From an uncultured Armatimonadetes bacterium (GTDB lineage: Bacteria; Armatimonadota; UBA5829; DTJY01), in contig OY970325.1 in assembly GCA_963717145.1 (NCBI GenBank), positions 4,768,001 to 4,832,000 of the forward strand: 64,000 nucleotides of DNA, given 5' to 3'. Within the stretch, counting starts at the first letter, position 1, and every line of letters starts with the position of its first letter. Positions 43,977 through 62,061 of this stretch are shown here, in pieces. A program made the position numbers and the translations under genes. The notes below the pieces were generated by a model, which was given only the letters and a program-made list of their open reading frames with translations, was not told the origin of the DNA and made no database searches.

Positions 43977-44005
43977 GCTTGCTCCCCCCTTACTCACTCC
44001 ACCGG

Positions 44006-44076
44006 CTGTCATTCTGAGCCCGGCGAAGAATCTGGCTATGCACGGGCCAGATTCTTCGCCGGGCTCAGAATGACAG
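44006..44076. repeat. Palindromic element with perfect 31-bp arms (GTCATTCTGAGC family)
   Basis: CTGTCATTCTGAGCCCGGCGAAGAATCTGGC / GCCAGATTCTTCGCCGGGCTCAGAATGACAG. Confidence 0.85.
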
Positions 44077-46025: not shown

Positions 46026-46054
46026 AGGATACCATCGCGCCCCCGAGGTGTCAA
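46026..46054 (-). promoter_or_regulatory. Sigma70-type promoter for the hydrolase/sulfatase block
   Basis: TTGACA-17 nt-TATCCT with TG; -35 overlaps the upstream gene's stop. Confidence 0.55.
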
Positions 46055-48033: not shown

Positions 48034-48140
48034 GATTCCCTCCAAGGCGCTTCCGCTAGTGGCGCAATCATCAAACGGATCAGGTCTTGTGATTCCATAG
48101 CGAGAGGCACGGCCTCAGCAAATGCGATGAGTCATGAGTA

Positions 48141-48392: not shown

Positions 48393-49379
48393 TCACTCCA
48401 CTTTTTCGTCATCAGCGCTCTGCCCCTCGTCTATCTTGGGGGTATGGTAAAGCCGACAACACATTCTGACGCTTCCACGCGGCTCTGGAGTCCCAGGTTT
48501 CCAGATCTGCTGACATTCGCGACCAAAAGACCTCATCCAGGCGGAGTCTGTCCCAGGGCTCTGACAAAGCATCACCGAGTCGTCTCGCACCTTTCGGTCG
48601 ATTCGCGGCTCTATCAATGACATCGCATATGCCCCGGTGGCTCCAGATGTTTCCCAATCTGTCACCTGTATTCCCTCCAGCATATCAGGAAGCTCGGCAT
48701 AGTCCACAGGCCTGATGTCCATTCTCTTGCAGATAATGTCCTTATCGCTAGCTCCCAAGATCTTGGACATCTCAGCCCGAAATACCGAGAGAACATACGA
48801 GATCGCTCTGTCAGAGATGCAAGCCGCGTTCCCCGCTGTTCCTCGCAACTGATTGCCGAGTTGTGCACTCTCGACCTCTATCTCCTTGTCTTGGAACATA
48901 AGGACATCCCGCTGAAGTGCATCTAGGAGGTACCTGGACGTCATGAGATCCGTTTGCTTCAGCGCCAGGATCGCGTTTGTGAACAGCTCCTGAACCCTTG
49001 GATCATACCCATACAAATCGGCATACGCTATCTCTATCTGTTCCTGCAGGATCCGCATAGAACACTCCGTGTGCACTTTCACCAACTCGCGCCAAAGAAA
49101 GTCACGGACTGGAATAACCGCCCGCTTCTCGATAAGCATGATATCCGCATCCGTGATCACTGGCTCGATGTCATCAAAGAACCTGAGGTTTAGTTCCTTC
49201 CACCGTTCTAGCTTTGCCACTACCATACCGGCAGTACGGCGGACACGATCGGCGTATTCCTTCCTTCTCAGTTGTCTATCCTTGTACCAACTTCCCGCAA
49301 TGGCTGCCGTCGAGACGATTACAGATGATGCGGTTGCTATGTGCCCGACACTGATCGTCTTATCGATGATGAAGTCCAC
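48393..49379 (-). CDS. Hypothetical protein with N-terminal TM
   Basis: Long low-GC ORF; GGAGAGGT RBS before GTG; own promoter. Confidence 0.7.
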   Translation of the reverse strand: MDFIIDKTISVGHIATASSVIVSTAAIAGSWYKDRQLRRKEYADRVRRTAGMVVAKLERWKELNLRFFDDIEPVITDADIMLIEKRAVIPVRDFLWRELVKVHTECSMRILQEQIEIAYADLYGYDPRVQELFTNAILALKQTDLMTSRYLLDALQRDVLMFQDKEIEVESAQLGNQLRGTAGNAACISDRAISYVLSVFRAEMSKILGASDKDIICKRMDIRPVDYAELPDMLEGIQVTDWETSGATGAYAMSLIEPRIDRKVRDDSVMLCQSPGTDSAWMRSFGRECQQIWKPGTPEPRGSVRMCCRLYHTPKIDEGQSADDEKVE

Positions 49380-49476
49380 GCCAATCACCTCTCCAACCAA
49401 TCATACGTACCAGCAATCCATCTTGTATCACTCTGGATACCTTTCCAGACCAGAAAGCGGATATCCACTCTATAGC

Positions 49477-49708: not shown

Positions 49709-49842
49709 CTCCGGTGTCCGGCATCCGGTATCCTGCTGATCCTGCACTGCTTCCGGTGACCGGTATCCGACCTCACCCCGCCGACGGAGAATGCGGCGCG
49801 CGATGCATACTCCGCATTCCGCATTCCCAATTCGTCATTCCC
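49709..49842. repeat. Degenerate heptamer tandem tracts (TCCGGCA / TCCGCAT)
   Basis: tccggtg tccggca tccggta tcctg...; tccgcat tccgcat tcccaat tcgtcat tccc. Confidence 0.6.
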
Positions 49843-50507
49843 TACGCGGCGATCGTCGCCTGGAAGACGTCCGACCAGGAGCCGGCCTCGCCTTTCTGGT
49901 TGACCCAGCGCAGACGGTAGTACGCCATCTTGCCGGCGTCTCCCTCCGCGTGGTTCACCACGGCGGGCGTGCGACCCGCGGTCTTGGAGTAGGTCATGTC
50001 GCTCGGCCCGGAAGGGGCTTCGCCGACCTTGACCCAGATCTCGCAACCGCGGATGCCGGCGGGCTTCGCCTTGCTGACGCCCGCGTCCTCTTCGTTCTCG
50101 AAGCTGACGATGTGCTTCAGCGGCTGGCCTCCGTTCGCGCGACCTGTCGGCCTGAGCGTCGGCGGCATCTCCGCCGGGACGTATGCGCTGCCACGGACGG
50201 TGATGCGCATCCCCGTGCGATCGGTGTCCGTGACGAGCGGACCGGCCTGCAGCCGATTGACGAGCGCGCGGATCTGCTGCTCGAGATCCGTCCGCTGCGT
50301 ATCCTTCGTGACTGTCGCGCCCTGGGCCTGCGCTTTCCACATGATCTGCTTGTTCAGCGCATCCTTCCAGAGCGGGGTCGCGGTCGAGATGGGGGTGAGG
50401 TCTGCATCGGTGAAGCCCATCGCCTCCATCCTCGGCGTCGCGTAGGTCAGGAAGTTATCGACCCACTCGTCGAAGTTCGCATCTTTGGTTGGCAAATAAC
50501 TTGCCAT
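49842..50507 (-). CDS. Hypothetical protein; predicted N-terminal helical bundle plus C-terminal Ig/Fn3-like domain
   Basis: GGAGGT RBS; YLPTKDANFDEW...KPAGIRGCEIW...YYRLRWVNQKGEAGSWS; host-like codon usage. Confidence 0.75.
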   Translation of the reverse strand: MASYLPTKDANFDEWVDNFLTYATPRMEAMGFTDADLTPISTATPLWKDALNKQIMWKAQAQGATVTKDTQRTDLEQQIRALVNRLQAGPLVTDTDRTGMRITVRGSAYVPAEMPPTLRPTGRANGGQPLKHIVSFENEEDAGVSKAKPAGIRGCEIWVKVGEAPSGPSDMTYSKTAGRTPAVVNHAEGDAGKMAYYRLRWVNQKGEAGSWSDVFQATIAA

Positions 50508-50626
50508 TCTTATCACCTCCTCTCCTGCAATCGTTATCTCCATTATCGGCCAACTTATGGTAGAACCACAGAGTTTCCGGCAGTCGCTTTTATAGAAAAA
50601 TGACTTGGAGTTTGGTATGGCAGAAA

Positions 50627-50805
50627 GAATCATTCTTTCCGCAGTAGGAACGGCGGATCCTTTCGAGGGAATCATTCGTTCCTTGGAGGCAATGGCGGAT
50701 CCTGTGGAGGGAATCATTCCCCCCGCAGAGGGAACGGCGGATCCTTTCGAGGGAATCACTCATTCCGCAGAGGGAATGGCGGATCCTGCGGAGGGAATCG
50801 CTCCC
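50627..50805. repeat. Tandem array of 42-bp units (4 complete plus 1 partial)
   Basis: Units start at 50627, 50669, 50711, 50753; invariant GAATCA and GGCGGATCCT blocks. Confidence 0.9.
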
Positions 50806-51227: not shown

Positions 51228-51243
51228 CAGGGGCGGAATCCGG

Positions 51244-51279
51244 CTCGTACGCGTACTCCTAATCGTAATCGTACTCGGC
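51244..51279. repeat. Hexamer-based arm (CTCGTA)n, left of the NLR triplet
   Basis: 32/36 identical to the reverse complement of 59243-59278. Confidence 0.75.
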
Positions 51280-51356
51280 TTTTCCGCCGTTCGATGTTGG
51301 ACGTTCGATGTTCGATGTTCGCTCCCCGTCCCTCCTCACTCCTCGCCCCTCTCTCC

Positions 51357-53828
51357 TCACTCCTGCTCCTCGATCTCCCGGAGGACGATGTCCAGCCATG
51401 CCTGCACGGTCTTGGTGTTGGGGTGCTCGTCCCCCAGGAACTTGCGGAGTATGGCCAGCGCCCGCGAGATGTGCTCCTTCGCGCCCGGCAGGTCTCCGAG
51501 GTCTCGCATAACGCTGCCGAGGTTGTTGAGGCGGATGGCGACGTTGGGATGATCCGGCCCGTAAGCGGCCACATCGATCCTGAGCGCCCGCTCGATGTGC
51601 TCCTTCGCGCCCGGCAGGTCTCCTAGGTCTTGCAGGACGCTGCCGAGGTTGTTGAGGCGGATGGCGACCGTGGGATGGTCCGGCCCGAGAGTCGCCTCAC
51701 TGATCCTGAGCGCCCGCTCAAATCGCTCCTTCGCGCCCGGCAGGTCTCCGAGGTCTTGCAGGACGAGGCCGAGTGTACTGGCATATATGGCAGCCTGAGG
51801 ATGATCCGGTCCGAGTGTCGCCTCACCGATCCTGAGCGCCCGCTCGAAGTGCCCCTTCGCGCCCGGCAGGTCTCCGAGGGCTCGCAGGACGTCCCCCAGG
51901 TTGTTGGCATATATCGCAACCTGGGGATGATCCTTCCCCAAGGCTTCCTCACCGATCCTGAGCGCCCGCTCGTAGTGCCCCTTCGCGCCCGGCAGGTCTC
52001 CGAGGGCCTTCAGGACACCGCCCAGGTTGCTGATGATGGCAGCCACCTCAATATGGTCTTCTCCGTAGAACACCCCGTGCGCGGCGAGCGCCCGCTCATG
52101 GGCGACCTTCGCCTCCGCGAACTGCGCGCGGCCTCTCAGATAGATTCCCGCCTGATTGAGAACACGCGCTGTGGCGTCGGGAGCTATCCCTAGATCCTCC
52201 GCGTGGCCCGCGGACGCGAGGGCATGGGGTAGGAGGCGCGCGCATTCCTCCCAGGTGCGAACATCATCGCTATGCTGAGGGAAGGCGTCGTTCACGACTT
52301 GGACGGCGGCCTCGGCCCATTTGTTGTGATCGTCTCCGTCGAGGCGCGCGCGGGTTACGGCTTGTACCAGGCGGTGGACGGAGAGCATCCCATCCGCGGA
52401 CTCGACGAGCGAATACTTCCGGAGAGCCGCCACAGCATCATCGAGCGCAAGCGGATCCTTGACCGCTTCGGCGAGAGGCTCGGGAAGGAACTTCGCGCCG
52501 GCAGTGATCGCGCCGAGCGGGATGTCGTCCGGGGCGAAGAAGGCGCAGAGATCGAGCAATTGCGCTCCGGCGGGTGACTCACCCTCGACCGCCTTGAACG
52601 AGATCTCCCAGGTCGTGGCGACCGTCGCTTCGTAGTCGTCGGCGGGCTTCCCGCGAGCGAGCAGTTCCTTCTCCGACCGCCGATAAAGGTCCAGGTACTC
52701 GGCAGGCGTCTTGTTCGCCTCCTCCATATACGCGGCGGCCTGCGCCAGTGCGAGCGGGAAATCGCAGAGAGCCTCCGCCAGGGCGTCCGCTCCCTTCCGA
52801 TCCGTCTGCCCGGAGCGCTTCAGCAGGAGGTCGATCGATTCGGTCCGCTTCATCCTGGTCACGGGCAGCGGCTCGGCCTCCCCGCGCCAGTTCGGATTCC
52901 TGGAGGTCACGATCACGTGTCCGGCCTCTTCGAGCGGAAGATAGGGCACGATGTCCTCCGGCATATTCACGTTATCGAAAACGATGAGCCAGCCGGTCGA
53001 ATCGCTCAGGAACGCGCGGACTGCCTGTGCGATCGCGGGCTCATCGGCGGCGTCCGCCTCCGGAAGTCCGATCCTCCCCGCGAGGGATGCGTAGTCCGAG
53101 ATCAGAGTGGACGGCTTCTCGCAGCGGACCCACCAGATGATGGTGTAATCGCTCATGTGCCGGTACGCATATTCCAGGGCCGCCTGCGTCTTCCCGATGC
53201 CCCCGAGCCCGTGCATCGCCTGAGTGAGCGCGGCAAGTTTGCCCGAGGTCAGCTTCTTGCGCAGATCGTCGAGGAGCTTCCCGCGGCCGGTGAAGTTGCG
53301 ATTGCGCCCGTGCGGGATGTTGTGGACCGTGCGGGCTCCCACGGGGAACTCAGGCCGCTCCGGCATCGCCCGTGTCGCAGTGATAGGGCACGGGGGCTTA
53401 GTGTCGGGCTTCCCTCTCGGCTTGAGGCCGTCGAGGAGTGCCACCCTGATCTCCTCTTCGTCGGTCAGCCCGACCAGGTCGAGATAGCTCCTGGACTTGA
53501 GCAGACCGGGCGGTTCACATTCCTCGATTCGGATGGGAAAGAGCTTTCTCTCCTCACCCGTGGGATCGTCCGCGAAGAACGTCGCCCACTCGGCCTCGAC
53601 AAAGCCTGACTCCAGGGAGTTCGGCGAGAGGACGAGGATGAGGCGGTCGGCCTTCTGCAGGCCCCTGTGCATATCGAGGGCCCAGTTTCCCCCGGGCCGG
53701 AAGTCCCACGCCTGGATGATAACGTGGTATCCCGCTTCCTCCAACTCCCAGGCGATCCACTCCGCCCACTCCCGGTCATCGCCGGTGTAGCTGATGAAGA
53801 AGTCTTTGCTCGGCGCGTCTTCGGTCAT
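51357..53828 (-). CDS. TIR - NB-ARC (STAND) - TPR protein, paralogue 1 (FxsT-like NLR architecture)
   Basis: DFFISY...AEW TIR; GLGGIGKT Walker A; WLIVFDN Walker B; five 42-aa TPR units at exact 126-bp spacing. Confidence 0.92.
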   Translation of the reverse strand: MTEDAPSKDFFISYTGDDREWAEWIAWELEEAGYHVIIQAWDFRPGGNWALDMHRGLQKADRLILVLSPNSLESGFVEAEWATFFADDPTGEERKLFPIRIEECEPPGLLKSRSYLDLVGLTDEEEIRVALLDGLKPRGKPDTKPPCPITATRAMPERPEFPVGARTVHNIPHGRNRNFTGRGKLLDDLRKKLTSGKLAALTQAMHGLGGIGKTQAALEYAYRHMSDYTIIWWVRCEKPSTLISDYASLAGRIGLPEADAADEPAIAQAVRAFLSDSTGWLIVFDNVNMPEDIVPYLPLEEAGHVIVTSRNPNWRGEAEPLPVTRMKRTESIDLLLKRSGQTDRKGADALAEALCDFPLALAQAAAYMEEANKTPAEYLDLYRRSEKELLARGKPADDYEATVATTWEISFKAVEGESPAGAQLLDLCAFFAPDDIPLGAITAGAKFLPEPLAEAVKDPLALDDAVAALRKYSLVESADGMLSVHRLVQAVTRARLDGDDHNKWAEAAVQVVNDAFPQHSDDVRTWEECARLLPHALASAGHAEDLGIAPDATARVLNQAGIYLRGRAQFAEAKVAHERALAAHGVFYGEDHIEVAAIISNLGGVLKALGDLPGAKGHYERALRIGEEALGKDHPQVAIYANNLGDVLRALGDLPGAKGHFERALRIGEATLGPDHPQAAIYASTLGLVLQDLGDLPGAKERFERALRISEATLGPDHPTVAIRLNNLGSVLQDLGDLPGAKEHIERALRIDVAAYGPDHPNVAIRLNNLGSVMRDLGDLPGAKEHISRALAILRKFLGDEHPNTKTVQAWLDIVLREIEEQE

Positions 53829-53918
53829 CTCCTCGGCCCTCCTTTCTCCGGTCACCCTCGGCCCGTTCGCCGCTCGATGTTGGACGTTCGATGTTCGATG
53901 CTCGCTTCCCGTCCCTCC

Positions 53919-56372
53919 TCACACCTGCTCCTCGATCTCCCGGAGCACGATGTGCAGCCATGCCTGCGTGTTCTTGGTCTTGGGATGCTCGTCCCCCAGG
54001 AACTTGCGGCGTATCTCCAGCGCACGCTCGATGTGCTCCTTCGCGCCCGGCAGGTCTCCGAGGGTTCGCAGGACGTTGCCGAGGTTGTTGGCATATAAGG
54101 CAACCTGGGGGTGATCCGGCCCGAGGGCTTTCTCGCCAATGGTAAGCGCCCGCTCCAAGTGCTCCTTCGCGCTCGGCAGGTCTCCGAGGTCTTGCAGGAT
54201 GAGGCCGAGCCTGGAGGCATAGATCGCCACGTATGGCGCGTATCTCGCCTCATCGATCCTGAGCGCCCGCTCCAAATGCTCCCTCGCACCCTGCAACTCT
54301 CCGTGGTCTGCCAGGACGCAGCCGAGATTGCCGGCATAAATCGCCATGTATGGCCCGTATCTCGCCTCATCGATCCTGAGCGCCCGCTCGATATGCTCTC
54401 TCGCGCCCGGAAGGTCTCCGCGGGCTTGCAGGACGAGGCCGAGGTTGTTGAGGCGGATGGCGACAGTGGGATGATCCGGCCCGTAGGCAGCCTCATCGAT
54501 CCTGAGCGCCCGCTCGAGGTGCTCCTGCGCGCCCGGCACGTCTCCGAGTTCTCGCAGAACATTGCCGAGGTTGCTGAGAATTTCAGCCACCTCAGTACGC
54601 TCTTCTCCATACAAGGCTCGGTGTGCCTCAAGTGCCCACTCATAAGCGTCCTTCGCCTCTGCAAACTGCGCGCGGCCACTCAGATAGAGCCCCGCCTGAT
54701 TGAGAACACGAGCAGTGGCGTCGGGAGCGATCGCCAACTCCTCCGAATAGCCCGCGGACGCGATGGCATGGGGAAGGAGACGGGCGCATTCCTCCCAGGT
54801 GCGATAGTCATAGCTCTCCTGCGGGAAGGCATCCTTGATAGTCTCGATGGCGGCCTCGGCCCACTTCTTGTGATCGTCACCATCGAGGCGGGCGCGGGTT
54901 ACGGCCTGAACCAGACGGTGGACGGCGAGGTTGCCGGAGTCCGCGTCTAGCAGCGAAAAGCGTCGGAGAGCCCGCAGAGCCTCATCGAGCAAGAGAGGCT
55001 CCTTGACAACTTCGGCCAGAGACTCGGGGAGGAACTTCGCTCCGGCGGTGATCACGTCGAGCGGGATGCTATCCGGAGCGAGGAAGGCGCAGAGGTTGAG
55101 CAGATCGGCAGCGGCAGGGGATTCCTTTTCCACCTGCTGAAACGATATCTCCCAGGTCGTGGCGACCGTCGCCGGGTAATCAACCGGAGGGTCGCCCTTC
55201 CTCAGGAGTTCCTGCGCGTGTTCGTTGAAAAGCGTCAGGTACTCGGGGAGCGGCCTGCCGGTCTCCTCCATATACGCCGCCGCCTGCTCCAGGGCGAGCG
55301 GGAAATCGCCGAGCGCCTTCGCCAGGGCGTCCGCAGCGATTGTGTCCTCCGTCCCGATGCGTCTCTGGAGGAACTCCACCGACTCCTCGCGCTTCCACTT
55401 TTCGACGGTCACAGCAGAGGCCGTTCGACCCCAGGCCTGATAGCGCGAGGTGATGATCACATTGCCGCCTTTTCCCTGCGGAAGATAGCCGTCGAGGTCC
55501 GGGGGCTTCTCGACGTTATCGAAAACCAGAAGCCATCCGGTAATATGCCCGAGATGCGCGCGCACGGCCTCCACGATCTTCGGCTGCTCGGCGGCGTCCT
55601 TCTCGGGAAGATCGAGTTTCCGCGCGAGGGCGGCGTAGTCGGACGCGAGGGTCGAGGGGTCCTCCGACCGAATCCACCAGACGATATCGTAGAGATCGGC
55701 GTACCGATACGCATACTCCAGGGCGAGCTGCGTCTTCCCCACGCCTCCGAGTCCGGCCATCGCCTGAGTGAGCGTGGCATGCGTGCCGGAGGTCAGGGCG
55801 TTGTGCAGGCTGTCGAGAATCTCCGCGCGCCCGGTGAAGTTCGGGTTCCGATTATGCGGCACGTTCCAGTGCGGCGGGAGAGTCCCGGGGAATCGGGGCT
55901 TCTTCTCGACGGCGCGCCTGGCGGTCGGAGGGAATCCGGGGGGAGTCCCCGGCTTCGCTCGACCTTCCTTGACCTCCGCGAGCAGCTTCGTCCTGGCGGT
56001 GCCCTCATCGAGGCCGCACAGGTCGATATAGATGCGCGGACCGAGCAGACCGTCGGGCTTGCAGTCGCGGATTCTGACGGGAACGAGCTTGCTCTCCCGC
56101 CCTGCGGGGTCCTGCGCGAAGACCGCGCTCCATTCGGCGGCGACGAAATCGGATGCGAGGGAATCGGGCGACAGGACGAGGATGGTCCGCTCGGCGTTCC
56201 TCAGGCCCTCGTGCATATCGACGACGAAGTTCCCCCCAGCCGCAAAGTCCCATGCCTGGATGACGCACGGATGGCCCGCCTCCTCCAGCTCCCAGGCGAT
56301 CCACTCCGCCCACGCCCGATCGGCCTTGTTGTAGCTGATGAAGAAGTCTTTCTTCCCGTCTTCAGTGGTCAT
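53919..56372 (-). CDS. TIR - NB-ARC - TPR protein, paralogue 2
   Basis: DFFISY, AAEW, GLGGVGKT, WLLVFDN; TPR units of 42 and 39 aa. Confidence 0.92.
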   Translation of the reverse strand: MTTEDGKKDFFISYNKADRAWAEWIAWELEEAGHPCVIQAWDFAAGGNFVVDMHEGLRNAERTILVLSPDSLASDFVAAEWSAVFAQDPAGRESKLVPVRIRDCKPDGLLGPRIYIDLCGLDEGTARTKLLAEVKEGRAKPGTPPGFPPTARRAVEKKPRFPGTLPPHWNVPHNRNPNFTGRAEILDSLHNALTSGTHATLTQAMAGLGGVGKTQLALEYAYRYADLYDIVWWIRSEDPSTLASDYAALARKLDLPEKDAAEQPKIVEAVRAHLGHITGWLLVFDNVEKPPDLDGYLPQGKGGNVIITSRYQAWGRTASAVTVEKWKREESVEFLQRRIGTEDTIAADALAKALGDFPLALEQAAAYMEETGRPLPEYLTLFNEHAQELLRKGDPPVDYPATVATTWEISFQQVEKESPAAADLLNLCAFLAPDSIPLDVITAGAKFLPESLAEVVKEPLLLDEALRALRRFSLLDADSGNLAVHRLVQAVTRARLDGDDHKKWAEAAIETIKDAFPQESYDYRTWEECARLLPHAIASAGYSEELAIAPDATARVLNQAGLYLSGRAQFAEAKDAYEWALEAHRALYGEERTEVAEILSNLGNVLRELGDVPGAQEHLERALRIDEAAYGPDHPTVAIRLNNLGLVLQARGDLPGAREHIERALRIDEARYGPYMAIYAGNLGCVLADHGELQGAREHLERALRIDEARYAPYVAIYASRLGLILQDLGDLPSAKEHLERALTIGEKALGPDHPQVALYANNLGNVLRTLGDLPGAKEHIERALEIRRKFLGDEHPKTKNTQAWLHIVLREIEEQV

Positions 56373-56414
56373 GTCTTCTCCGCTCCCCACCCGCACGTCC
56401 GTCTCGGCGTGTCC

Positions 56415-58745
56415 CTAGCCGGATTCCTTCTCGTCGATCTCCCGGAGGACGATGTCCAGCCAGCTCTGCGCCCTCTCCGTATCAGGGTGATCGTTTCCCA
56501 GGAACTGCCCACATATCCCCAACTCCCGCTTGAAATGTTCCTTCGCGCCCTGCAAATCCCCAAGGCGTCGCAGGACCAAACCGATACCGCCGAGGTGGCT
56601 TACTATCTTGGGATCATTGGGGCCAAAGGCAGTCTCGTCTATTGCCAGTGCGCGCTCGAAATACTCATAAGCTCGACGGAATTCCCCGCATCTGTACAGC
56701 ACAAACCCAAGGTTGCAGAGACGGATAGCGACGGCGGGATGCTCGGGGCCATAGAGATCCCTATCCATATCCAGCGCCTGCTCATAGTACGCTTTTGCCC
56801 CCTCGTGATCTCCCAAGGTGCTCAGGACGAGACCGAGGTTGTTCAGGTTGATGGCGATCTCGGAATGACTTGGGCCATAAGTGGACTTATTAATAGATAG
56901 AGCTCGCTCGAAGTGCTCCTTCGCTGCCTTGGGGTCTCCAAGATCCAGCAGGACAAGGCCGAGGTCGTTCAGGTCCACAGCCACATTGTGATGATTCGGC
57001 CCGCTGCTCCTCTCATCTTCCATAACCGCCTGTTCCAGCACGTGCTGCGCCTCCACGAATCGCGCGCATCTACGCAAGTACAGCCCCACCTCATCCAAGA
57101 CTTTTCCAGTCGCATTGCACTGAATGGCAAGATCGCGCGCATGTGCCACCGCTGCCATGGCATGTGGCACCAGCCACGCGCATTCGTACCACGGCCGCAG
57201 ATCATAGTCCTCCTGCGGGAACGCACGCTTGACAAGGCGCACGGCGGCTTCGGCCCACTTCTTCTGATCGTCTTCGCTGAGACGGTCGAGGGTGACGGCC
57301 TGGACCAGACGGTGGACGGAGAGCTTCCCATCCTGACACTCCGCAAGCGAATAGTGTCCGAGGGCGATTAGGGCTTCGTCGAGCTTCAACTCATCCTGCA
57401 CGACTCCCGCGAGCGGCTCGGGGAGGAACTGCGCGCCCGATCGGATGATATCCAGCGGGATATCGTCCGGGGCGAAGAAGGCGCAGAGGTTGAGCAGGTC
57501 CGCGCCGGCGGGGGACTCCTTCCTGAGGGCTTCGAAGCTGATCTCCCAGGTGGTCGCAACCGTGGCTTCGTAGTCAGTCGCGGGCTTTCCGCGTTCGAGG
57601 AGATCCTGCCGGTGCTTCTCATAGAGCGCAGTGTAATCGGCCAGGGACTTGCCGGCCTTGCGGATATACGCTCCCGCCTGCTCCAGCGCGAGCGGGAAGT
57701 CGCCGAGAACATCCGCCAGCTTGTCCGCATCGTCCGGTTCGTCGCGCCCGGTGCGTCTGAGGAGGAACGCGACCGACTCCTTGCGAGGCCAGACCTTCAC
57801 CGATAACTCGGACGCCGTTCCGCTCCAGTCCGATTCGCGCGAGGTGATGATCACGTGCCCGGTCTCCCCCAGCGGAAGGTATGGCCTCACGTGCTCAGGC
57901 TTCTCGACGTTATCGAAAATGAGAAGCCATCCGGTGATATGCCCGAGGTGGGCTTTCACCGCCGCTGCGATCTCGGGCTGGTTGGAGGGATCGGCTATCG
58001 GCAGGTTCAGCTCCCCGGCGAGGGCCGCGTAATCGGAAGCAAGCGTGCTGGGGTCTTCGGAGCGGACCCACCAGACGATATCGTAGTCGGCTTTGTGCCG
58101 ATACGCATACTCCAGGGCGAGCTGCGTCTTCCCGATGCCGCCGAGCCCGTGCATCGCCTGAGTGAGCGCGGCGGGTTTGCCGGAGGTCAGGGCCTCGCGC
58201 AGATCGGTCAGAATCTCCTCGCGCCCGGTGAAGTTCGGATTCCGCCGGTGCGGGATGTTCCATATCTTAGGCAGCGTTCCCCGGAAGACCTTCAGCCATT
58301 TCGGACACTTGCCCGGAATCCTGGCGGCGGCGGGATCGCATTTGGCGACTTCCAGGAGGGCCTCCCTGGCATCAGGCTCACTCAGGCCGACGAGATCGAG
58401 ATAGATAATCGATCGGAGCAGACCCTCTACCTCGCAACTCCGAACGCGAATGGGGATGAACTTCCGCATCTCGCCCGTGGGGTCTTCGGCAAAGGTGGCG
58501 GCGAACTCGGCCATGGCGAAACCGGATGTGAAGTAATCGGGAGAGAGAACGCCGATGGTATGCTCGGCAATCTTGAGGGCTTCATCCATCATGAGGACGA
58601 AGTTGTTCCCCGGCCGGAAGTCCCAGGCCTGGATGATCGTGGAGTAACCGGCGACCTCCAACTCGTGCGCGATCCAGACCGCGTGGTCCGCGTCGGCCTT
58701 GTTGTAGCTGATGAAGAAGTCTTTCTTCGAGTCCTTAGCGCTCAT
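56415..58745 (-). CDS. TIR - NB-ARC - TPR protein, paralogue 3
   Basis: DFFISY, MAEF, GLGGIGKT, WLLIFDN; divergent TPR region. Confidence 0.92.
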   Translation of the reverse strand: MSAKDSKKDFFISYNKADADHAVWIAHELEVAGYSTIIQAWDFRPGNNFVLMMDEALKIAEHTIGVLSPDYFTSGFAMAEFAATFAEDPTGEMRKFIPIRVRSCEVEGLLRSIIYLDLVGLSEPDAREALLEVAKCDPAAARIPGKCPKWLKVFRGTLPKIWNIPHRRNPNFTGREEILTDLREALTSGKPAALTQAMHGLGGIGKTQLALEYAYRHKADYDIVWWVRSEDPSTLASDYAALAGELNLPIADPSNQPEIAAAVKAHLGHITGWLLIFDNVEKPEHVRPYLPLGETGHVIITSRESDWSGTASELSVKVWPRKESVAFLLRRTGRDEPDDADKLADVLGDFPLALEQAGAYIRKAGKSLADYTALYEKHRQDLLERGKPATDYEATVATTWEISFEALRKESPAGADLLNLCAFFAPDDIPLDIIRSGAQFLPEPLAGVVQDELKLDEALIALGHYSLAECQDGKLSVHRLVQAVTLDRLSEDDQKKWAEAAVRLVKRAFPQEDYDLRPWYECAWLVPHAMAAVAHARDLAIQCNATGKVLDEVGLYLRRCARFVEAQHVLEQAVMEDERSSGPNHHNVAVDLNDLGLVLLDLGDPKAAKEHFERALSINKSTYGPSHSEIAINLNNLGLVLSTLGDHEGAKAYYEQALDMDRDLYGPEHPAVAIRLCNLGFVLYRCGEFRRAYEYFERALAIDETAFGPNDPKIVSHLGGIGLVLRRLGDLQGAKEHFKRELGICGQFLGNDHPDTERAQSWLDIVLREIDEKESG

Positions 58746-58782
58746 GAAACCTCTCGCTGGGGTCAGGCTTTCACGCGCTTAC

Positions 58783-58810
58783 ATTATACCAGCCGACCGG
58801 TAGGTGTCAA
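58783..58810 (-). promoter_or_regulatory. Consensus sigma70 promoter upstream of the NLR triplet
   Basis: TTGACA-16 nt-TATAAT with TG extension, ~40 nt upstream of the ATG. Confidence 0.78.
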
Positions 58811-58974
58811 GGGAAGGGGGGAGGGCGGGAGGGCATCGGAGGATGGGCCCGGCGGATCGATGTGTCGCGCGCGGGTGGGGGATGACCGGCAACTCGCGGG
58901 CTGAGCGATCTACTCCGCAATCCGCACTCGCGATTCTCTGGGCGGCGATCGTCGCGTCGACGAGATCGCACGCG

Positions 58975-59142
58975 GCGACTGTTATCTCGATGGTTGCGAC
59001 CGTTATCTCGATGGGTGCGACTGTTATCGCGATGGTTGCGACGGTTGTCGCGATGGTTGCGACCGTTATCGCGACGGTTGCGACTGTTGTCGCGATGGCC
59101 GCGACTGTTATCGCGACGGTTGCGACTGTCATCGGGATGAGC
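58975..59142. repeat. Tandem array of eight 21-bp units
   Basis: Consensus GCGACTGTTATCGCGATGGTT. Confidence 0.92.
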
Positions 59143-59242
59143 GCGAGCGATCGAGCGATGCCCGGGATCGAAGCGGGCGTCGAGCCGCCCGGGGGAAAAG
59201 CGGTGTCGAGCCACCGCACTCCATATCCCTCGAAGGCGACAG

Positions 59243-59278
59243 GCCGAGTACGAGTACGATCAGGGGTACGAGTACGAG
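59243..59278. repeat. Hexamer-based arm (TACGAG)n, right of the NLR triplet
   Basis: GCCGAGTACGAGTACGATCAGGGGTACGAGTACGAG. Confidence 0.75.
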
Positions 59279-59304
59279 GGGAAGCGGAGATGATGGCCGG
59301 AGGG

Positions 59305-59333
59305 TTGACCGGGAGGGGTGGGGGACGTATACT
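59305..59333 (+). promoter_or_regulatory. Sigma70-type promoter for the symporter operon
   Basis: TTGACC-17 nt-TATACT. Confidence 0.65.
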
Positions 59334-59370
59334 GTCGGCAACGGATTACTCATGGATCGAGGAATCGCCG

Positions 59371-62061
59371 ATGCCGAGATACGCCGCAAAGATGCTCGCA
59401 GTTCTCTTCGCAGTTGTCCTTCTGAGCGCTCTTCCGCTCTGTGCCGGGTCACCGGAGTACAACTCCGGTGACAACAGGTTGGGGGCCGGCGAGAACAGGT
59501 TGGGGGCCGGCGACAAGAGAGAAAGAGCGTTGTCACCGGAGTTGTACTCCGGTGACCCACCACGGATGTTCGACTGGAAGACGCTGCCGACGCTCCCGAT
59601 GCCGCTCTCCGGTCACTTCGCCGGGACATCAAACGGCGCGCTGATCGTCGCGGGCGGGACGAACTTCCCAGTGTCGCTGTTCGAGGGCGGCACGAAGGAG
59701 TGGTACGACTCGGTCTACGTCCTTCCAAAGGGCGAGAAGGCTTGGAAGAAGGGGGGAACGCTCCCGCACTCCCTCGCTTACGGAGCGTCGGTTTCGACCG
59801 ATGAAGGGCTGGTCTGCATCGGCGGCGGGGATGCCGAGAAGCACTATCCGAAGGCATTCCTGCTTCAGTATGCCAAGGGCGCGACTCCGCGAACAGCCGC
59901 CACCATAGAAAGCGTCTCCCTTCCTGATCTGTGGGAGGCAAGAGCATTCTTCGGGGCAGCCCTGCTGGGCGACCTGATCTATGTAGTAGGCGGACAGACC
60001 GATCCGAAGTCGACCGAAGCCCTCAACTCCGCCTGCGTTCTCAGTTTCCGGTCGGACGACGCCATGTGGTTGATGATAGAACCGCTCCCCGGTCCGGGAC
60101 GAATCCTGCCGGTGGTGGCGGCACAGGACGGCGCGGTCTACGTCTTCGGTGGGTGCTCGCTGAGTCCCGGTCCGGACGGCAAGGCGGTCAGGAAGTACCT
60201 CTGGGACGGCTATTGCTATCGGCCCGGAAAGGGATGGAAGAAGGTAGCGGACCTTCCGTGGCCGGTGACCGCCGCTCCGAGCATCGCGCACGGTCCCTCG
60301 CACATCCTCGTCTTCGGCGGCGATGACGGCGCGCTCGTCGATCGCGTGCAGGAACTCAAGGACAAGCATCCCGGATTCAGCCGCCAGTTGATCGCTTACC
60401 ATACCATTACAGACAGATGGGCCTGGATGGGAACGCTTCCGAAGGGGCTCGTCACGACAAACGCCGTCACCTGGGAGGGAAGCATCGTGATCCCCGGCGG
60501 GGAGGATCGTCCGGGCCACAGATCGGCGGAGGTGCTGAGCGCGAAGGGCATGAAGCCGGAGGGACACTTCTTCCCGCTCGATTACGGGGTCCTGATCGCC
60601 TACCTGCTCGGGATGGTGTGGATCGGGTTCATTATGGCCGGCCGTGAGGAGACGACGGACGACTTCTTCCTCGGCGGGCGGCGCGTGCCGTGGTGGGCGG
60701 CGGGGCTCAGCATCTTCGGCACTCAGCTCAGCGCGATCACGTTCATGGCGATACCGGCAAAGGTCTACGCCACGGACTGGGTCTACATCCTCGGGAACAT
60801 GTGCATCGTGCTCGTGGCGCCGCTGGTCGTGTTCTTCTACCTCCCGTTCTTCCGGCGGCTCAATGTCACGACGGCCTATGAGTACCTGGAGAAGCGGTTC
60901 AGCCTTCCCGTGAGGCTCTTCGGGAGCGCGTCGTTCATCCTCTTCCAGTTGGGGCGGATGGGGATCGTGCTCTTCCTGCCGGCGATCGCGCTCTCGGCGG
61001 TGACGGGGATCGGCATCACGACCTGCATCCTCCTGATGGGCGTGCTGGCGACGATGTACACGGTCATGGGCGGAATCGAGGCGGTGATCTGGACCGACGT
61101 CGTGCAGGTGATCGTCCTGCTCGGCGGCGCGATCGTCAGCCTGATATGGATATTGGCCGAGTACGGCGGAGGGATCGGCGAGGCGTTCGCCGTGGCGCAG
61201 TCGGCCGACAAGTTCCACACCTTCAACTGGACCTGGGACATCACGACCGCGGCCGTCGGGGTCGTCGTCGTGGGCAACATATTCAGCAACCTCGTGCCGT
61301 ACACCGCGGACCAGGCCGTGATCCAGCGCTACCTCACGACCAAGGATGAGAATGCGGCGAAGAAGTCGATCTGGCTCAACGCGTGGCTCTCGGTCCCGTC
61401 GGCGTTCATCTTCTTCGGCGTCGGGACGGCGCTCTGGCTCTTCTACCGCAGCCATCCCGGCCTGCTGAACCCGTCGCTCTCGACCGACGCGATCTTTCCG
61501 CTGTTCATCGCGATGGAGCTTCCGGCGGGGATCACGGGGCTCGTGGTTGCGGGACTCTTTGCGGCGGCGATGTCGACCTTGGACAGCAGCATGAACAGCG
61601 TGGCGACGGCGCTGGTCACCGATTTCTACCGCAGATTCAGGCCGAACGCTCCGGATCGGAGATGCCTCAACCTCGCGCGCTGGCTGACCGTGTTCCTCGG
61701 AGTCGCGGGAGTCGGGACGGCGCTCTGGATGGCGAACAGCGGAATCAAGTCGCTCTGGGACGCCTTCATAACGATCCTCGGGCTGACAGGCGGGGCGCTC
61801 GCGGGGATGTTCATCCTCGGGATCTTCACCCGGCGCGCGCACGGTACGGGAACGCTCATCGGCGCGATCGGCGGCGGATTCGTGCTCTACATGGTGCAGA
61901 GCCGCACGAGCGTCCACTTCTTCCTCTACGCGGCGGTGGGGATCGTCGCGTGTGTCGTGATCGGATACGCGGCGAGTCTCATCATCCCCGCGAAGAAGCG
62001 CGATCTCAGTGGGCTCACCATATACACAATCAATGACGGGAGGGGCGATCTCGGATCCTAA
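59371..62061 (+). CDS. Fusion of a Kelch propeller (NanM/mutarotase-like) and a sodium:solute symporter (SiaT-like)
   Basis: Signal peptide; Kelch GG motifs (VAGGTNFP, CIGG, VVGG, VFGG, IPGGEDRPG); SSS motifs DFFLGGR, AYEYLEKRF, AVIWTDVVQ, QRYL, AAAMSTLDS. Confidence 0.88.
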   Translation: MPRYAAKMLAVLFAVVLLSALPLCAGSPEYNSGDNRLGAGENRLGAGDKRERALSPELYSGDPPRMFDWKTLPTLPMPLSGHFAGTSNGALIVAGGTNFPVSLFEGGTKEWYDSVYVLPKGEKAWKKGGTLPHSLAYGASVSTDEGLVCIGGGDAEKHYPKAFLLQYAKGATPRTAATIESVSLPDLWEARAFFGAALLGDLIYVVGGQTDPKSTEALNSACVLSFRSDDAMWLMIEPLPGPGRILPVVAAQDGAVYVFGGCSLSPGPDGKAVRKYLWDGYCYRPGKGWKKVADLPWPVTAAPSIAHGPSHILVFGGDDGALVDRVQELKDKHPGFSRQLIAYHTITDRWAWMGTLPKGLVTTNAVTWEGSIVIPGGEDRPGHRSAEVLSAKGMKPEGHFFPLDYGVLIAYLLGMVWIGFIMAGREETTDDFFLGGRRVPWWAAGLSIFGTQLSAITFMAIPAKVYATDWVYILGNMCIVLVAPLVVFFYLPFFRRLNVTTAYEYLEKRFSLPVRLFGSASFILFQLGRMGIVLFLPAIALSAVTGIGITTCILLMGVLATMYTVMGGIEAVIWTDVVQVIVLLGGAIVSLIWILAEYGGGIGEAFAVAQSADKFHTFNWTWDITTAAVGVVVVGNIFSNLVPYTADQAVIQRYLTTKDENAAKKSIWLNAWLSVPSAFIFFGVGTALWLFYRSHPGLLNPSLSTDAIFPLFIAMELPAGITGLVVAGLFAAAMSTLDSSMNSVATALVTDFYRRFRPNAPDRRCLNLARWLTVFLGVAGVGTALWMANSGIKSLWDAFITILGLTGGALAGMFILGIFTRRAHGTGTLIGAIGGGFVLYMVQSRTSVHFFLYAAVGIVACVVIGYAASLIIPAKKRDLSGLTIYTINDGRGDLGS
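59446..59558. repeat. Palindromic element in frame within the Kelch-SSS gene
   Basis: 30-bp perfect arms GGGTCACCGGAGTACAACTCCGGTGACAAC / GTTGTCACCGGAGTTGTACTCCGGTGACCC; internal duplication AACAGGTTGGGGGCCGGCGA x2. Confidence 0.85.

Follow-up and report, generated by a model that had tools for sequence, protein, structure and literature searches.

Three tandem genes in the window (the whole 64,000-nucleotide stretch of Armatimonadota DNA that was analysed) encode paralogous TIR-NB-ARC-TPR proteins, here called T1, T2 and T3. The reading that we favour, with a probability of about 0.55, is that they are standalone NLR-like STAND sensors for abortive infection with a predicted TIR NADase, in an array that grew by duplication, with later exchange between T2 and T3. 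It is uncommon to find three such genes in a single operon whose sensor ends show signs of exchange and diversification.

Organisation of the locus

T1, T2 and T3 occupy 51357–58745 on the minus strand and share one orientation, as the initial annotation had proposed; it counted along the plus coordinates, and its paralogue 1 is T3 and its paralogue 3 is T1. T1 (56415–58745, minus strand) encodes 776 amino acids with a likely ATG start at 58745. T2 (53919–56372, minus strand; 817 amino acids) probably starts at ATG 56372, with GTG 56396 as an alternative, and T3 (51357–53828, minus strand; 823 amino acids) at ATG 53828, with GTG 53855 as an alternative. The T1–T2 spacer (56373–56414, minus strand) spans 42 nt, with GGAG 5 nt 5′ of the T2 ATG, and the T2–T3 spacer (53829–53918, minus strand) spans 90 nt; in it lie AGGAGG, which is the T3 ribosome-binding stretch, and a short repeat of the heptamer type. 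All three starts are preceded by a Shine-Dalgarno-like stretch.

The promoter described in the initial annotation was found as TTGACA, a 16-nt spacer ending in TGG, and TATAAT (58783–58810, minus strand), a sigma-70-type element 38 nt 5′ of the T1 ATG. It matches the consensus at 12 of 12 positions, and a TG lies two bases upstream of its −10 hexamer (TTGACA-16-TGnTATAAT). Perfect sites of this kind, the T1 promoter among them, occur 38 times genome-wide against an expectation of about 0.26 from base composition. The single promoter and tight spacing imply co-expression of T1, T2 and T3, and the locus is a three-gene operon. A very strong constitutive promoter ahead of three potential NAD-burning proteins is unexpected for a toxic effector and counts against reading the TIR domains as NADase effectors.

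Domain architecture and conserved residues

Each protein comprises a TIR domain, an NB-ARC/AP-ATPase, a winged helix (DUF7779) and kinesin-light-chain-type TPRs. The initial annotation had read the TIR-NB-ARC-TPR architecture from the open reading frames, and Pfam matches, the family alignment and a fold model of T3 bear it out. In T1 the TIR domain covers residues 10–130, NB-ARC about 181–333 (Pfam) and DUF7779/winged helix 406–493, followed by a helical linker, four 42-aa TPR units (residues 581–748) and a C-terminal cap. T2 and T3 have the same layout with five TPR units each; two of those in T2 are 39 aa long, and the five in T3 are all of 42 aa, with up to 91% DNA identity between adjacent units. 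Pfam TIR_2 matches are strong (E 3e-26 to 4e-35; 92.6–121.3 bits, cut-off 28), those to NB-ARC are borderline (21.2–24.9 bits, cut-off 23.5), and DUF7779, TPR_12 and TPR_10 are also matched. Pfam and NCBIfam gave no DNA-binding domain in T1–T3. The best PDB sequence matches are kinesin-light-chain-type TPRs, which bind short peptides.

The catalytic-position glutamate claimed for all three TIR domains is present, within AEF in T1 and AEW in the other two, and Glu80 is kept in all 80 aligned family rows. Its aligned counterpart in bacterial TIR chain 7uxr_A is the Glu of WTEYE, the W-x-x-x-E motif, whose first position is here Phe, not Trp. We take the Glu in this position to be the TIR catalytic residue; the AbTIR NAD(+) hydrolase is among the PDB matches to the TIR domain. 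The Walker motifs are likewise intact: G207, G209, G210, G212 and K213 of Walker A (GxxGxGK) and D285 of Walker B do not vary in any of the 80 rows. In nearly all of these rows Asn, not Asp or Glu, follows the Walker B Asp, so ATP hydrolysis may be atypical. The PLxL residues P358, L359 and L361 and His485 are also unchanged across the 80 rows.

A structure model of T3 residues 1–551 (pLDDT 80.4) found the plant TIR-NLR RPP1 as its best structural match (7dfv_B, E 2.8e-12), in keeping with the NLR likeness first noted from sequence. RPP1, CED-4, Apaf-1, NRC, ZAR1 and Roq1 were matched at E values of 1e-12 to 1e-7, and Foldseek gave a probability of 1.00 for CED-4 (TM 0.53/0.57), Apaf-1, NRC, ZAR1 and RPP1, so that T3 has the NBD-HD1-WHD fold of these proteins.

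T1–T3 belong to a described family but lack Fxs partners

By profile score, T1–T3 are further members of an already described protein family: against NCBIfam NF040586 (FxSxx-COOH system TPR protein; cut-off 300) they score 481.3, 491.7 and 496.7 bits, a result that a search of the genome confirmed. The family of NF040586-type proteins is very large, with 3,982 and 7,017 matches in two database searches, and among the homologues listed those with names represent numerous phyla other than Actinomycetota. In the literature searched we found no experimental test of any member. The accessible text of Kaur et al. 2020 (PMC7159879) places a TIR-AP-ATPase-TPR gene downstream of FxSxx peptide-processing genes.

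The initial annotation had remarked that no FxSxx-COOH peptide, FxsB or FxsC is adjacent; profile searches confirmed this and extended it to the whole 5.37-Mb genome. FxsB (TIGR04269; cut-off 370) was not found, the highest score in the genome being 112.6 bits for a match 135 kb away, and the C-terminal domain of FxsC (TIGR04276; cut-off 55) reached no more than 17.1 bits, away from the locus. No match to the FxsA precursor peptide (TIGR04268) at E ≤ 0.01 was seen among the 150 of 240 candidates scored, a search that a very divergent peptide could escape. With none of FxsA, FxsB and FxsC found in the genome, T1–T3 appear to be standalone; the NCBI annotation places their family under a peptide system that is absent here. 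A radical SAM/SPASM gene at 32988–34049 was considered as FxsB and rejected. It sits in a glycosyltransferase cluster and falls below the cut-off in the best 25 of 69 listed families, FxsB not being among the 25. The name of NF040586, together with what is accessible of Kaur et al. 2020 (PMC7159879), ties the relatives of T1–T3 to peptide processing and not directly to phage sensing.

Probable exchange between T2 and T3

The initial annotation described patchwork similarity among the paralogues and a recombining array. Each of the motifs it quoted occurs in exactly the pairs named, but the order of informative sites is not clustered beyond chance (amino-acid runs test over the N-terminal 505 columns, P = 0.11). 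The N-terminal half has 171 informative sites, of which 86 are consensus-like, meaning that the residue occurs in >40% of 153 outgroup rows, and 39 are rare. The quoted short patches thus seem mostly to be family-consensus residues retained by two copies, and the fine patchwork is therefore not supported as evidence of recombination.

Third codon positions gave a different picture of the C-terminal part. A segment of about 300 codons shared by T2 and T3, spanning the linker and TPRs (codon columns 528–828; minus strand, 51360–52262 in T3 and 53922–54806 in T2), stands out as more alike than the rest of the genes in the third-position test (P = 0.0004) and in synonymous divergence, dS falling from 0.74 in NB-ARC to 0.31 in the TPRs. 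Third-position identity of this pair is 0.72 in the C-terminal half against 0.58 in the N-terminal half, and their linker identity of 0.77 is equalled by only 0.04% of the 4,995 family pairs that are about as identical in their N-terminal part. In pairwise NG86 estimates, dN/dS between T2 and T3 is raised in the TPRs, at 0.83 and still below 1, against 0.22–0.45 in the other parts. One exchange, of these C-terminal T2–T3 codons, is probable and has good support from the synonymous sites, by which the two genes have a C-terminal sensor of younger common origin, and there are signs that the sensor ends have diversified.

Shared rare residues also change partner between domains (heterogeneity chi-square P = 0.0004). 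T2 and T3 share 8 of 13 in the TIR domain and 17 of 26 past P0003 position 450, and in NB-ARC T1 and T3 share 12 of 19. A candidate T1–T3 exchange tract at codon columns 387–439 (minus strand, 52527–52685 in T3 and 57465–57623 in T1) contains GKPA.DYEATV and has rare residues common to T1 and T3 at P0003 positions 391, 405, 409 and 422. With an uncorrected P of 0.024 in the third-position test, exchange here is suggestive. The NB-ARC domains are about equally diverged at synonymous sites in all three pairs (dS 0.71–0.74), and other parts of T1 reach 0.93–1.9.

AU tests did not reject one tree for all parts. For NB-ARC, the single tree ((T2,T3),T1) was not rejected, with p = 0.97 in an earlier run and 0.06, 0.54, 0.22 and 0.065 in four runs, and the best topology was (T1,P0124,T3) in four of four outgroup draws. 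Of the recombination claim, the C-terminal T2–T3 exchange has the support of synonymous sites and the domain-wise switch of partner that of rare residues, with the AU and runs tests on the other side. The comparison of pairwise identity along the genes, proposed as a check in the initial annotation, came out in the same divided way: T2–T3 third positions are non-uniform, yet one tree along the genes is not rejected.

P0124, the nearest relative of T1, is 76% identical to it over residues 1–467 and 39–40% over the C-terminal part, the most extreme such contrast among 12,246 family pairs; no database protein exceeds 50% identity to the C-terminal part of T1. We did not accept a T1/P0124 module swap as proven, as the AU test does not reject the sisterhood of the two there (p = 0.12–0.33, three runs) and no donor was found. 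Fast divergence of the C-terminal part is a possible source of the contrast.

The 3′ flank of T3 (51300–51343, minus strand) is 93% identical over 44 nt to that of T2 (53883–53926), and identity of the two flanks over 55 nt is 94.5%. We discarded it as a fresh conversion tract: some two-thirds of it belongs to a short repeat that recurs at many other sites in the genome, and the flank similarity is accordingly given little weight. With physically overlapping flanks excluded, the longest exact DNA match among the three genes is 32 nt (T1–T3). A search of sequencing runs listed one DNA run, with 0.08 of the sequence words, and none of RNA.

Distribution and genomic context

Tandem copies of T1–T3-type genes look rare. 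All 32 other homologous loci examined are solitary, none having a second copy, and a single copy therefore seems sufficient. Any match to T1–T3 was found in 6 of 41 genomes of relatives, with 36% identity at best, and the locus is carried by no close relative. Across the phylum, 32 of 401 genomes exceed the NF040586 cut-off. The flanking sulfatase and Kelch-SSF genes are 15.5 kb apart here and 3.1 and 6.3 kb apart in two relatives, in which different genes occupy the interval. The locus thus appears accessory in character, which fits conflict genes generally. It is not clear that the neighbourhood is a defence island: metabolic genes flank T1–T3 on both sides, one DUF4365-TPR gene lies nearby, and PADLOC gave no match for the 8 ORFs around them. 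The patchy, accessory distribution of the family does not discriminate a role against phage from one in allorecognition or regulation.

Proposed function and alternatives

We propose that the TPR sensor of each paralogue would bind a protein or peptide of foreign origin, in all likelihood from a phage, and that binding would lift autoinhibition and let the NB-ARC domains oligomerise in the ATP-bound state. The TIR domains would then cluster into active NADase sites, and depletion of NAD+, or production of ADP-ribose-type compounds, would halt the infected cell in an abortive infection. In this scheme the NADase activity, the oligomerisation, the trigger and the defence phenotype are inferred. 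Related work is consistent with it: in the accessible text, TIR domains joined to Avs-type STANDs count as effectors that deplete NAD+ (10.64898/2025.12.03.692087), and bacterial STANDs bind phage proteins by way of TPR-like sensors, with sensors common to several clades (PMC13581612). The three copies would probably broaden the range of triggers, the T1 sensor being unlike that of every sampled relative and those of T2 and T3 related yet apparently diverging. The array probably arose by tandem duplication; at least one T2–T3 exchange of the C-terminal sensor came later, and after it the TPRs changed fast at the amino-acid level.

The alternative to this history is an old tandem triplication and nothing more, without exchange between copies. 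Unequal rates, with faster evolution of the T1 sensor and two copies retaining consensus residues where the third drifts, would give the mosaic look, and this would suit the N-terminal runs test (P = 0.11), the excess of consensus-like over rare sites (86 of 171 against 39) and the AU tests, which never reject T2 and T3 as NB-ARC sisters or, at p = 0.12–0.33, T1 and P0124 as sisters in the C-terminal part. We nevertheless hold it to be rather unlikely: synonymous sites should ignore protein-level rate shifts, yet the T2–T3 segment departs at P = 0.0004 with dS of 0.31 against 0.74, the pair of copies that shares rare residues varies from domain to domain (P = 0.0004), and (T1,P0124,T3) is best for NB-ARC in four of four draws. 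Unlikely, too, is the more far-reaching idea that the locus is to bacteria what an R-gene cluster is to plants, an array in which exchange of sensor segments between neighbours, shuffling of near-identical TPR units and NB-ARCs kept compatible for co-oligomerisation would create new specificities. If that were true, the mechanism of cluster-level NLR diversification, and not its parts alone, would predate eukaryotes; if neighbouring genes do not exchange sensor segments, T1–T3 are simply three further members of a known family.

The remaining alternatives concern function. T1–T3 could be orphan receptors of a peptide conflict or signalling system, with TPRs that bind a processed or modified peptide, not a phage protein; the best PDB sequence matches are of a peptide-binding type. 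All three exceed the NF040586 "equivalog" cut-off, and the peptide might come from elsewhere in the genome or from other cells, as in actinobacterial FxSxx-COOH systems, where the accessible text of PMC7159879 has the TIR-AP-ATPase-TPR gene downstream of the FxSxx genes. We find this quite improbable, given that FxsA, FxsB and FxsC were not found in the complete 5.37-Mb contig, that the sole radical SAM/SPASM gene of the window lies in a glycosyltransferase cluster and under the family cut-offs (best 25 of 69), and that the homologues listed span many non-Actinomycetota phyla. The shared promoter and tight spacing would equally suit a single hetero-oligomeric unit in which one protein senses and the others amplify, as in paired or networked plant NLRs, and the even dS of NB-ARC (0.71–0.74, against 0.93–1.9 in other T1 parts) could reflect constraint on an oligomerisation surface. 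In plant helper/sensor NLR pairs, however, one partner often lacks catalytic or P-loop residues or a complete sensor. T1, T2 and T3 all retain these, and each of the 32 other loci examined has a lone homologue, which makes such a unit seem quite unlikely. Fungal NB-ARC-TPR NLRs, for which NB-ARC followed by highly similar TPR_10/TPR_12 repeats is typical, act in allorecognition, and T1–T3 might serve regulated cell death or self/non-self recognition between bacteria, or be NTP-dependent regulators like AfsR or MalT, with no phage involved. The AfsR model is matched weakly (E 1e-11, well under its cut-off), and the accessible text of Kaur et al. 2020 (PMC7159879) links such systems to multicellular habits. 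Both point that way, but the N-terminal TIR with its conserved Glu and the lack of a DNA-binding domain by Pfam or NCBIfam leave it very improbable.

The locus offers three natural variants behind one strong promoter, alike in effector and switch and differing in sensor. It could serve as a compact test bed for sensor ligands, for NAD+ depletion by the TIR domains and for R-gene-like exchange of sensors between neighbouring bacterial NLRs.

Comparison with known systems

The order TIR, AP-ATPase, TPR is the same in T1–T3 and in the FxSxx-COOH/VMAP ternary systems, as far as the accessible text of Kaur et al. 2020 (PMC7159879) describes them, and database homologues of T1–T3 bear this family name. 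Those systems have single copies and belong to actinobacteria; here there are three in tandem, in an Armatimonadota genome without FxSxx peptide, FxsB maturase or FxsC. No vWA, MoxR or metallopeptidase domain was found among the annotated neighbours of T1–T3.

Avs/AVAST proteins are reportedly antiviral STAND NTPases, described by Gao et al. 2022. They follow the same three-part logic of N-terminal effector, STAND NTPase and C-terminal TPR-like sensor (PMC13581612, accessible text), and TIR is one of the NAD+-depleting effector types of Avs-type proteins in the available part of 10.64898/2025.12.03.692087. The NTPase of T1–T3 is, however, of the AP-ATPase/NB-ARC type, with CED-4 and Apaf-1 as best matches and Avs3 at rank 47. 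The "Avs-type" label of the initial annotation could not be upheld, PADLOC returning 5–9 weak matches per protein (to TIR and TPR domains) and no Avs model. The bNACHT proteins of Kibby et al. (10.1101/2022.07.19.500537) are, in the accessible text, likewise single-chain bacterial NLR-like receptors with varied effectors and anti-phage activity; they carry NACHT in place of NB-ARC, and PADLOC gave T1–T3 no bNACHT match.

For TIR and NB-ARC together, the best structural matches are the plant TIR-NLR resistosomes RPP1, Roq1 and WRR4A (7dfv_B, 7crc, 7jlv, 9qlv), and no bacterial proteins resemble plant TIR-NLRs more closely than those of the TIR-NB-ARC-TPR type. Both have the catalytic-position Glu, the P-loop, a GLPLA-like motif and the His at the MHD position, and both occur in tandem clusters, with a sensor that in T1–T3 may be diversifying. 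The sensor of T1–T3 is nevertheless TPR instead of LRR and C-JID, identity of the T3 model to those chains is only 15–19%, and a downstream pathway of the EDS1 type is not expected in bacteria.

Fungal NB-ARC-TPR NLRs (related work: PMC13449251) have NB-ARC followed by 42-aa units of the TPR_10/TPR_12 type, as do T1–T3, which differ in being bacterial, in having TIR as the N-terminal domain throughout and in forming an operon with a bacterial promoter. Two further traits of T1–T3 recall fungal NLRs, namely near-identical adjacent units (91% at the DNA level in T3) and a unit number that varies between copies (4, 5 and 5).

A predicted three-gene receptor operon behind one consensus promoter

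Three co-oriented paralogues on the minus strand encode TIR-NB-ARC-TPR (NLR-like) receptors, named here T1, T2 and T3 in operon order. T1 occupies 56415–58745 (ATG at 58745, 776 aa), T2 53919–56396 (start ATG at 56372, 817 aa) and T3 51357–53855 (start ATG at 53828, 823 aa), with intergenic gaps of 42 nt (T1–T2) and 90 nt (T2–T3). Inspection of the start regions placed each ATG behind a purine-rich ribosome-binding stretch, and the lengths of T2 and T3 agree with the gene calls of database entries P0022 and P0004, at 817 and 823 aa. The promoter proposed by the initial annotation, TTGACA-16-TATAAT, was located upstream of T1 at 58810–58783 (minus, the coding strand), where the 16-nt spacer ends in TGG, 38 nt 5′ of the T1 ATG. 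The 5.37-Mb genome contains 38 perfect TTGACA-N16-18-TATAAT sites, where its base composition predicts ~0.26; the consensus is thus one that the organism uses, and the operon's match to it is among the best in the genome. The genome-wide excess of such sites suggests that the canonical sigma-70 consensus is in use in this little-studied phylum.

Domain architecture and conserved residues

All three proteins matched Pfam TIR_2 (92.6–121.3 bits) and DUF7779, gave strong TPR_12 and TPR_10 matches, and were borderline for NB-ARC (21.2–24.9 bits against a cut-off of 23.5). The family was aligned in 80 rows (T1, T2, T3 and 77 relatives; residues are numbered on T3 from its ATG). Invariant in 80/80 rows are the TIR glutamate E80, the P-loop residues G207, G209, G210, G212 and K213, the Walker B aspartate D285, the PLxL residues P358, L359 and L361, and the histidine at the MHD position, H485. 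The earlier description of intact Walker A and B motifs thus stands for the P-loop and D285, but needs qualifying for Walker B, as the aspartate is followed in nearly all 80 rows by Asn instead of a second acidic residue (Asp/Glu). Judging from this substitution, ATP hydrolysis may be slow or absent in the clade containing T1–T3.

A profile built from the TIR domains of T1–T3 matched solved TIR chains, including the AbTIR NAD(+) hydrolase (E = 5.8e-5), and the family glutamate aligned with the Glu of W-T-E-Y-E in chain 7uxr_A, which we take to be the catalytic residue of TIR NADases. For T3 residues 1–551, modelled with AlphaFold2 (mean pLDDT 80.4, pTM 0.58), the top structural match was the plant TIR-NLR RPP1 (7dfv_B; E = 2.8e-12, 540 aligned columns across TIR and NB-ARC), followed by CED-4, Apaf-1 and the NRC, ZAR1 and Roq1 resistosomes; Avs3 ranked 47.

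We infer the putative activity, trigger and phenotype of T1–T3 by analogy with solved NLR and Avs systems. The TPR sensor would keep the receptor inactive until it bound a foreign protein or peptide, the NB-ARC module would then oligomerise, the clustered TIR domains would cleave NAD+, and the cell would cease to support the invader. Parts of this scheme have support in relatives: a study of bacterial STANDs describes TPR-like sensors that bind phage proteins, and sensor types of which some recur across NTPase clades (PMC13581612), and another report treats TIRs fused to Avs proteins as NAD+-depleting effectors (10.64898/2025.12.03.692087). No experimental work on the NF040586-type TIR-NB-ARC-TPR family was found in the mainly open-access literature searched. 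PADLOC, run on T1–T3 as the initial annotation had suggested, returned weak TIR and TPR domain matches and matched no defence system model.

Probable sensor exchange between T2 and T3

The initial annotation regarded the triplet as a recombining array on the basis of a patchwork of shared motifs. All the motifs it quoted are present, in precisely the gene pairs stated (its numbering follows plus-strand coordinates, so that its paralogue 1 is T3 and its paralogue 3 is T1), but the fine patchwork is not evidence of recombination. Overall identity is 63% for T2–T3 and 52–54% for T1 with either. Over alignment columns 1–505, two-copy agreements divide about equally among the three pairings (63 T1=T2, 56 T1=T3, 53 T2=T3) and show no clustering in their order (runs test P = 0.11), while after column 505 T2=T3 accounts for 81 sites against 16 and 18 for the other pairs. 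Since rate and history are inseparable with three sequences, relatives were added, and informative sites were classed by the frequency of the shared residue in 153 outgroup rows (consensus-like, >40%; rare, ≤10%). Of the 171 informative sites in the N-terminal half, 86 fall in the consensus-like class and 39 in the rare class. Consensus-like sites are uninformative on exchange, and most of the patches belong to this class.

Rare shared residues change partner by domain (chi-square 20.4, P = 0.0004; Monte Carlo P = 0.00015). For T1=T2, T1=T3 and T2=T3, respectively, the counts are 1, 4 and 8 in the TIR, 5, 12 and 2 in the NB-ARC (P0003 positions 185–450), and 7, 2 and 17 after 450. The linkers of T2 and T3 are 0.77 identical at an N-terminal identity of 0.60, a combination matched by 0.04% of 4,995 family pairs of similar N-terminal identity. 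In AU tests on four draws of ten outgroups each, (T2,T3) was preferred in the TIR and the C-part in all four draws, with (T1,T3) rejected in the C-part (p = 0.003–0.006). For the NB-ARC, all four draws preferred (T1,P0124,T3), where P0124 is the nearest relative of T1. There, (T2,T3) was never rejected, either in the four draws (p = 0.063, 0.54, 0.22 and 0.065) or in a test on 44 rows (p = 0.97), so that a single tree for all parts is compatible with the AU tests.

The clearest mosaic-related signal is at synonymous sites. Among 466 polymorphic third positions in 768 gap-free codons, T2 and T3 have an unusually matched segment at codon columns 528–828 (P = 0.0004); T1 and T3 have a weaker one at columns 387–439 (P = 0.024, uncorrected for three pairs), and no matched segment was detected for T1–T2. 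Pairwise NG86 estimates of T2–T3 dS are 0.75 in the TIR, 0.74 in the NB-ARC, 0.63 in the linker and 0.31 in the TPRs, where dN/dS reaches 0.83 against 0.22–0.45 in other parts. For T1 with T2 or T3, dS is lowest in the NB-ARC (0.71–0.74) and 0.93–1.9 elsewhere. One exchange of the sensor segment between these two genes, or its partial re-duplication, is the probable and well-supported reading for T2 and T3, and a small T1–T3 exchange tract is possible.

The C-part of T1 allows two explanations. Residues 1–467 of T1 and P0124 are 76% identical, their collinear C-parts 40%, a contrast larger than in any other of 12,246 family pairs. The C-part of T1, to which no database protein is more than 50% identical, may have been swapped in from an unsampled donor; or the T1 sensor may be diverging very fast with no swap, and sisterhood of T1 and P0124 in the C-part was not rejected by the AU test (p = 0.12–0.33).

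The TPRs of all three proteins are most similar to kinesin light chain (E = 2e-23). T1 has four 42-aa units, T3 five and T2 five, two of them cut to 39 aa. At the DNA level, identity between adjacent T3 units reaches 91%. The shortened pair in T2, adjacent units 3 and 4 (54145–54443, minus strand), lacks the usual 'DHP' turn and forms a 117-nt tandem repeat. A second genomic locus outside the window (C1:3102917–3106002 and 3112270–3112710) has kinesin-light-chain-type TPR matches and, ~6 kb from them, a TIR-like match that is 28–30% identical to the T1/T3 TIR.

Distribution, copy number and relation to FxSxx systems

The family is very large: among 8,000 candidates scored, 3,982 proteins (T3 query) and 7,017 (T1 query) reached E ≤ 1e-20, most with the same domains and 45–58% identity, under names that span many phyla and archaea. 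Closer to home, 6 of 41 relative genomes, this one included, have any match at E ≤ 1e-20 (best 36% identity), and in at least 32 of 401 same-phylum genomes a protein exceeds the family cut-off, with two candidates scored per genome. Copy number was compared as suggested earlier. In a species-wide collection of 42 loci, 12 had an NB-ARC match, with exactly one copy each; two others (Frankia and Streptacidiphilus records) had two or three TIR matches and no NB-ARC match at the threshold used. One copy each was also found in 20 loci from same-phylum genomes, cut with up to ~9 kb either side. A second tandem copy was therefore seen in none of the 32 loci examined, several of which stop at contig edges, and tandem copies seem rare. 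The architecture and protein family are already known. The unusual aspects of this locus are its three copies in a single operon behind a top-scoring promoter, a depth of divergence that differs between parts of the genes, and a sensor that changes fast. In these respects the array recalls plant R-gene clusters and the NB-ARC-TPR NLRs of fungi.

T1, T2 and T3 score 481–497 bits against NF040586 ('FxSxx-COOH system tetratricopeptide repeat protein'; cut-off 300). In actinobacterial vWA-MoxR ternary systems, as set out by Kaur et al. 2020 (PMC7159879), a TIR-AP-ATPase-TPR gene, the same kind as T1–T3, lies downstream of an FxSxx peptide-processing module. The absence of adjacent Fxs partners, remarked on previously, extends to the whole genome: family searches found no FxSxx peptide (E ≤ 0.01, 150 of 240 candidates scored), no FxsB, the radical SAM maturase (best 112.6 bits against 370), and no C-terminal domain of the partner protein FxsC (17.1 against 55). 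T1–T3 thus belong to the NF040586 protein family but lie outside the FxSxx system, and standalone members without Fxs genes appear common. A radical SAM/SPASM gene at 32988–34049 (plus strand) was rejected as FxsB, and it reached the cut-off of none of the NCBIfam models listed for it (best 25 against 69). It is the only one of its kind in the window and lies within a lower-GC stretch (~14–40 kb, GC 0.54–0.59), clustered with genes for glycosyltransferase, GtrA-like and UbiA-family proteins.

Genomic neighbourhood

The variable slot that houses the triplet, as accessory DNA, is no recognisable defence island. The slot is flanked by a sulfatase gene (42318–44012) and a Kelch/mutarotase (NanM-like)–sodium:solute symporter fusion (long ORF 58804–62061, plus strand), both with orthologues in two relatives (70–84% identity). 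In those relatives, 3.1 and 6.3 kb of DNA with unrelated metabolic or transport genes separate the two; the distance here is 15.5 kb. Orthologues of the fusion in three relatives align only from ~residue 247, so its real start is probably near 59542, which puts ~730 nt of unassigned sequence between that start and the triplet promoter. The extra DNA comprises the triplet, a glycoside-hydrolase-like gene, a DUF4365-TPR gene and two ORFs (48393–49400 and 49842–50759, minus strand) without Pfam, NCBIfam or PADLOC match, which lie between the DUF4365-TPR gene and T3; the former ORF has a GC3 of 0.60, below its neighbours. The DUF4365-TPR protein (46051–48045, minus strand; 664 aa, DUF4365 N-terminal and TPRs central) is encoded 3.3 kb downstream of the triplet and had no PADLOC or NCBIfam match; look-alike clusters of this layout (~590–660 aa) are widespread in Bacteria. 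Directly 3′ of the T2 and T3 stops (53868–53922 and 51230–51356) are short repeats dispersed across the genome, one of them a CATCGAA-type heptamer run, and farther downstream of T3 is a ~33-nt repeat unit with >20 partial copies elsewhere in the genome.
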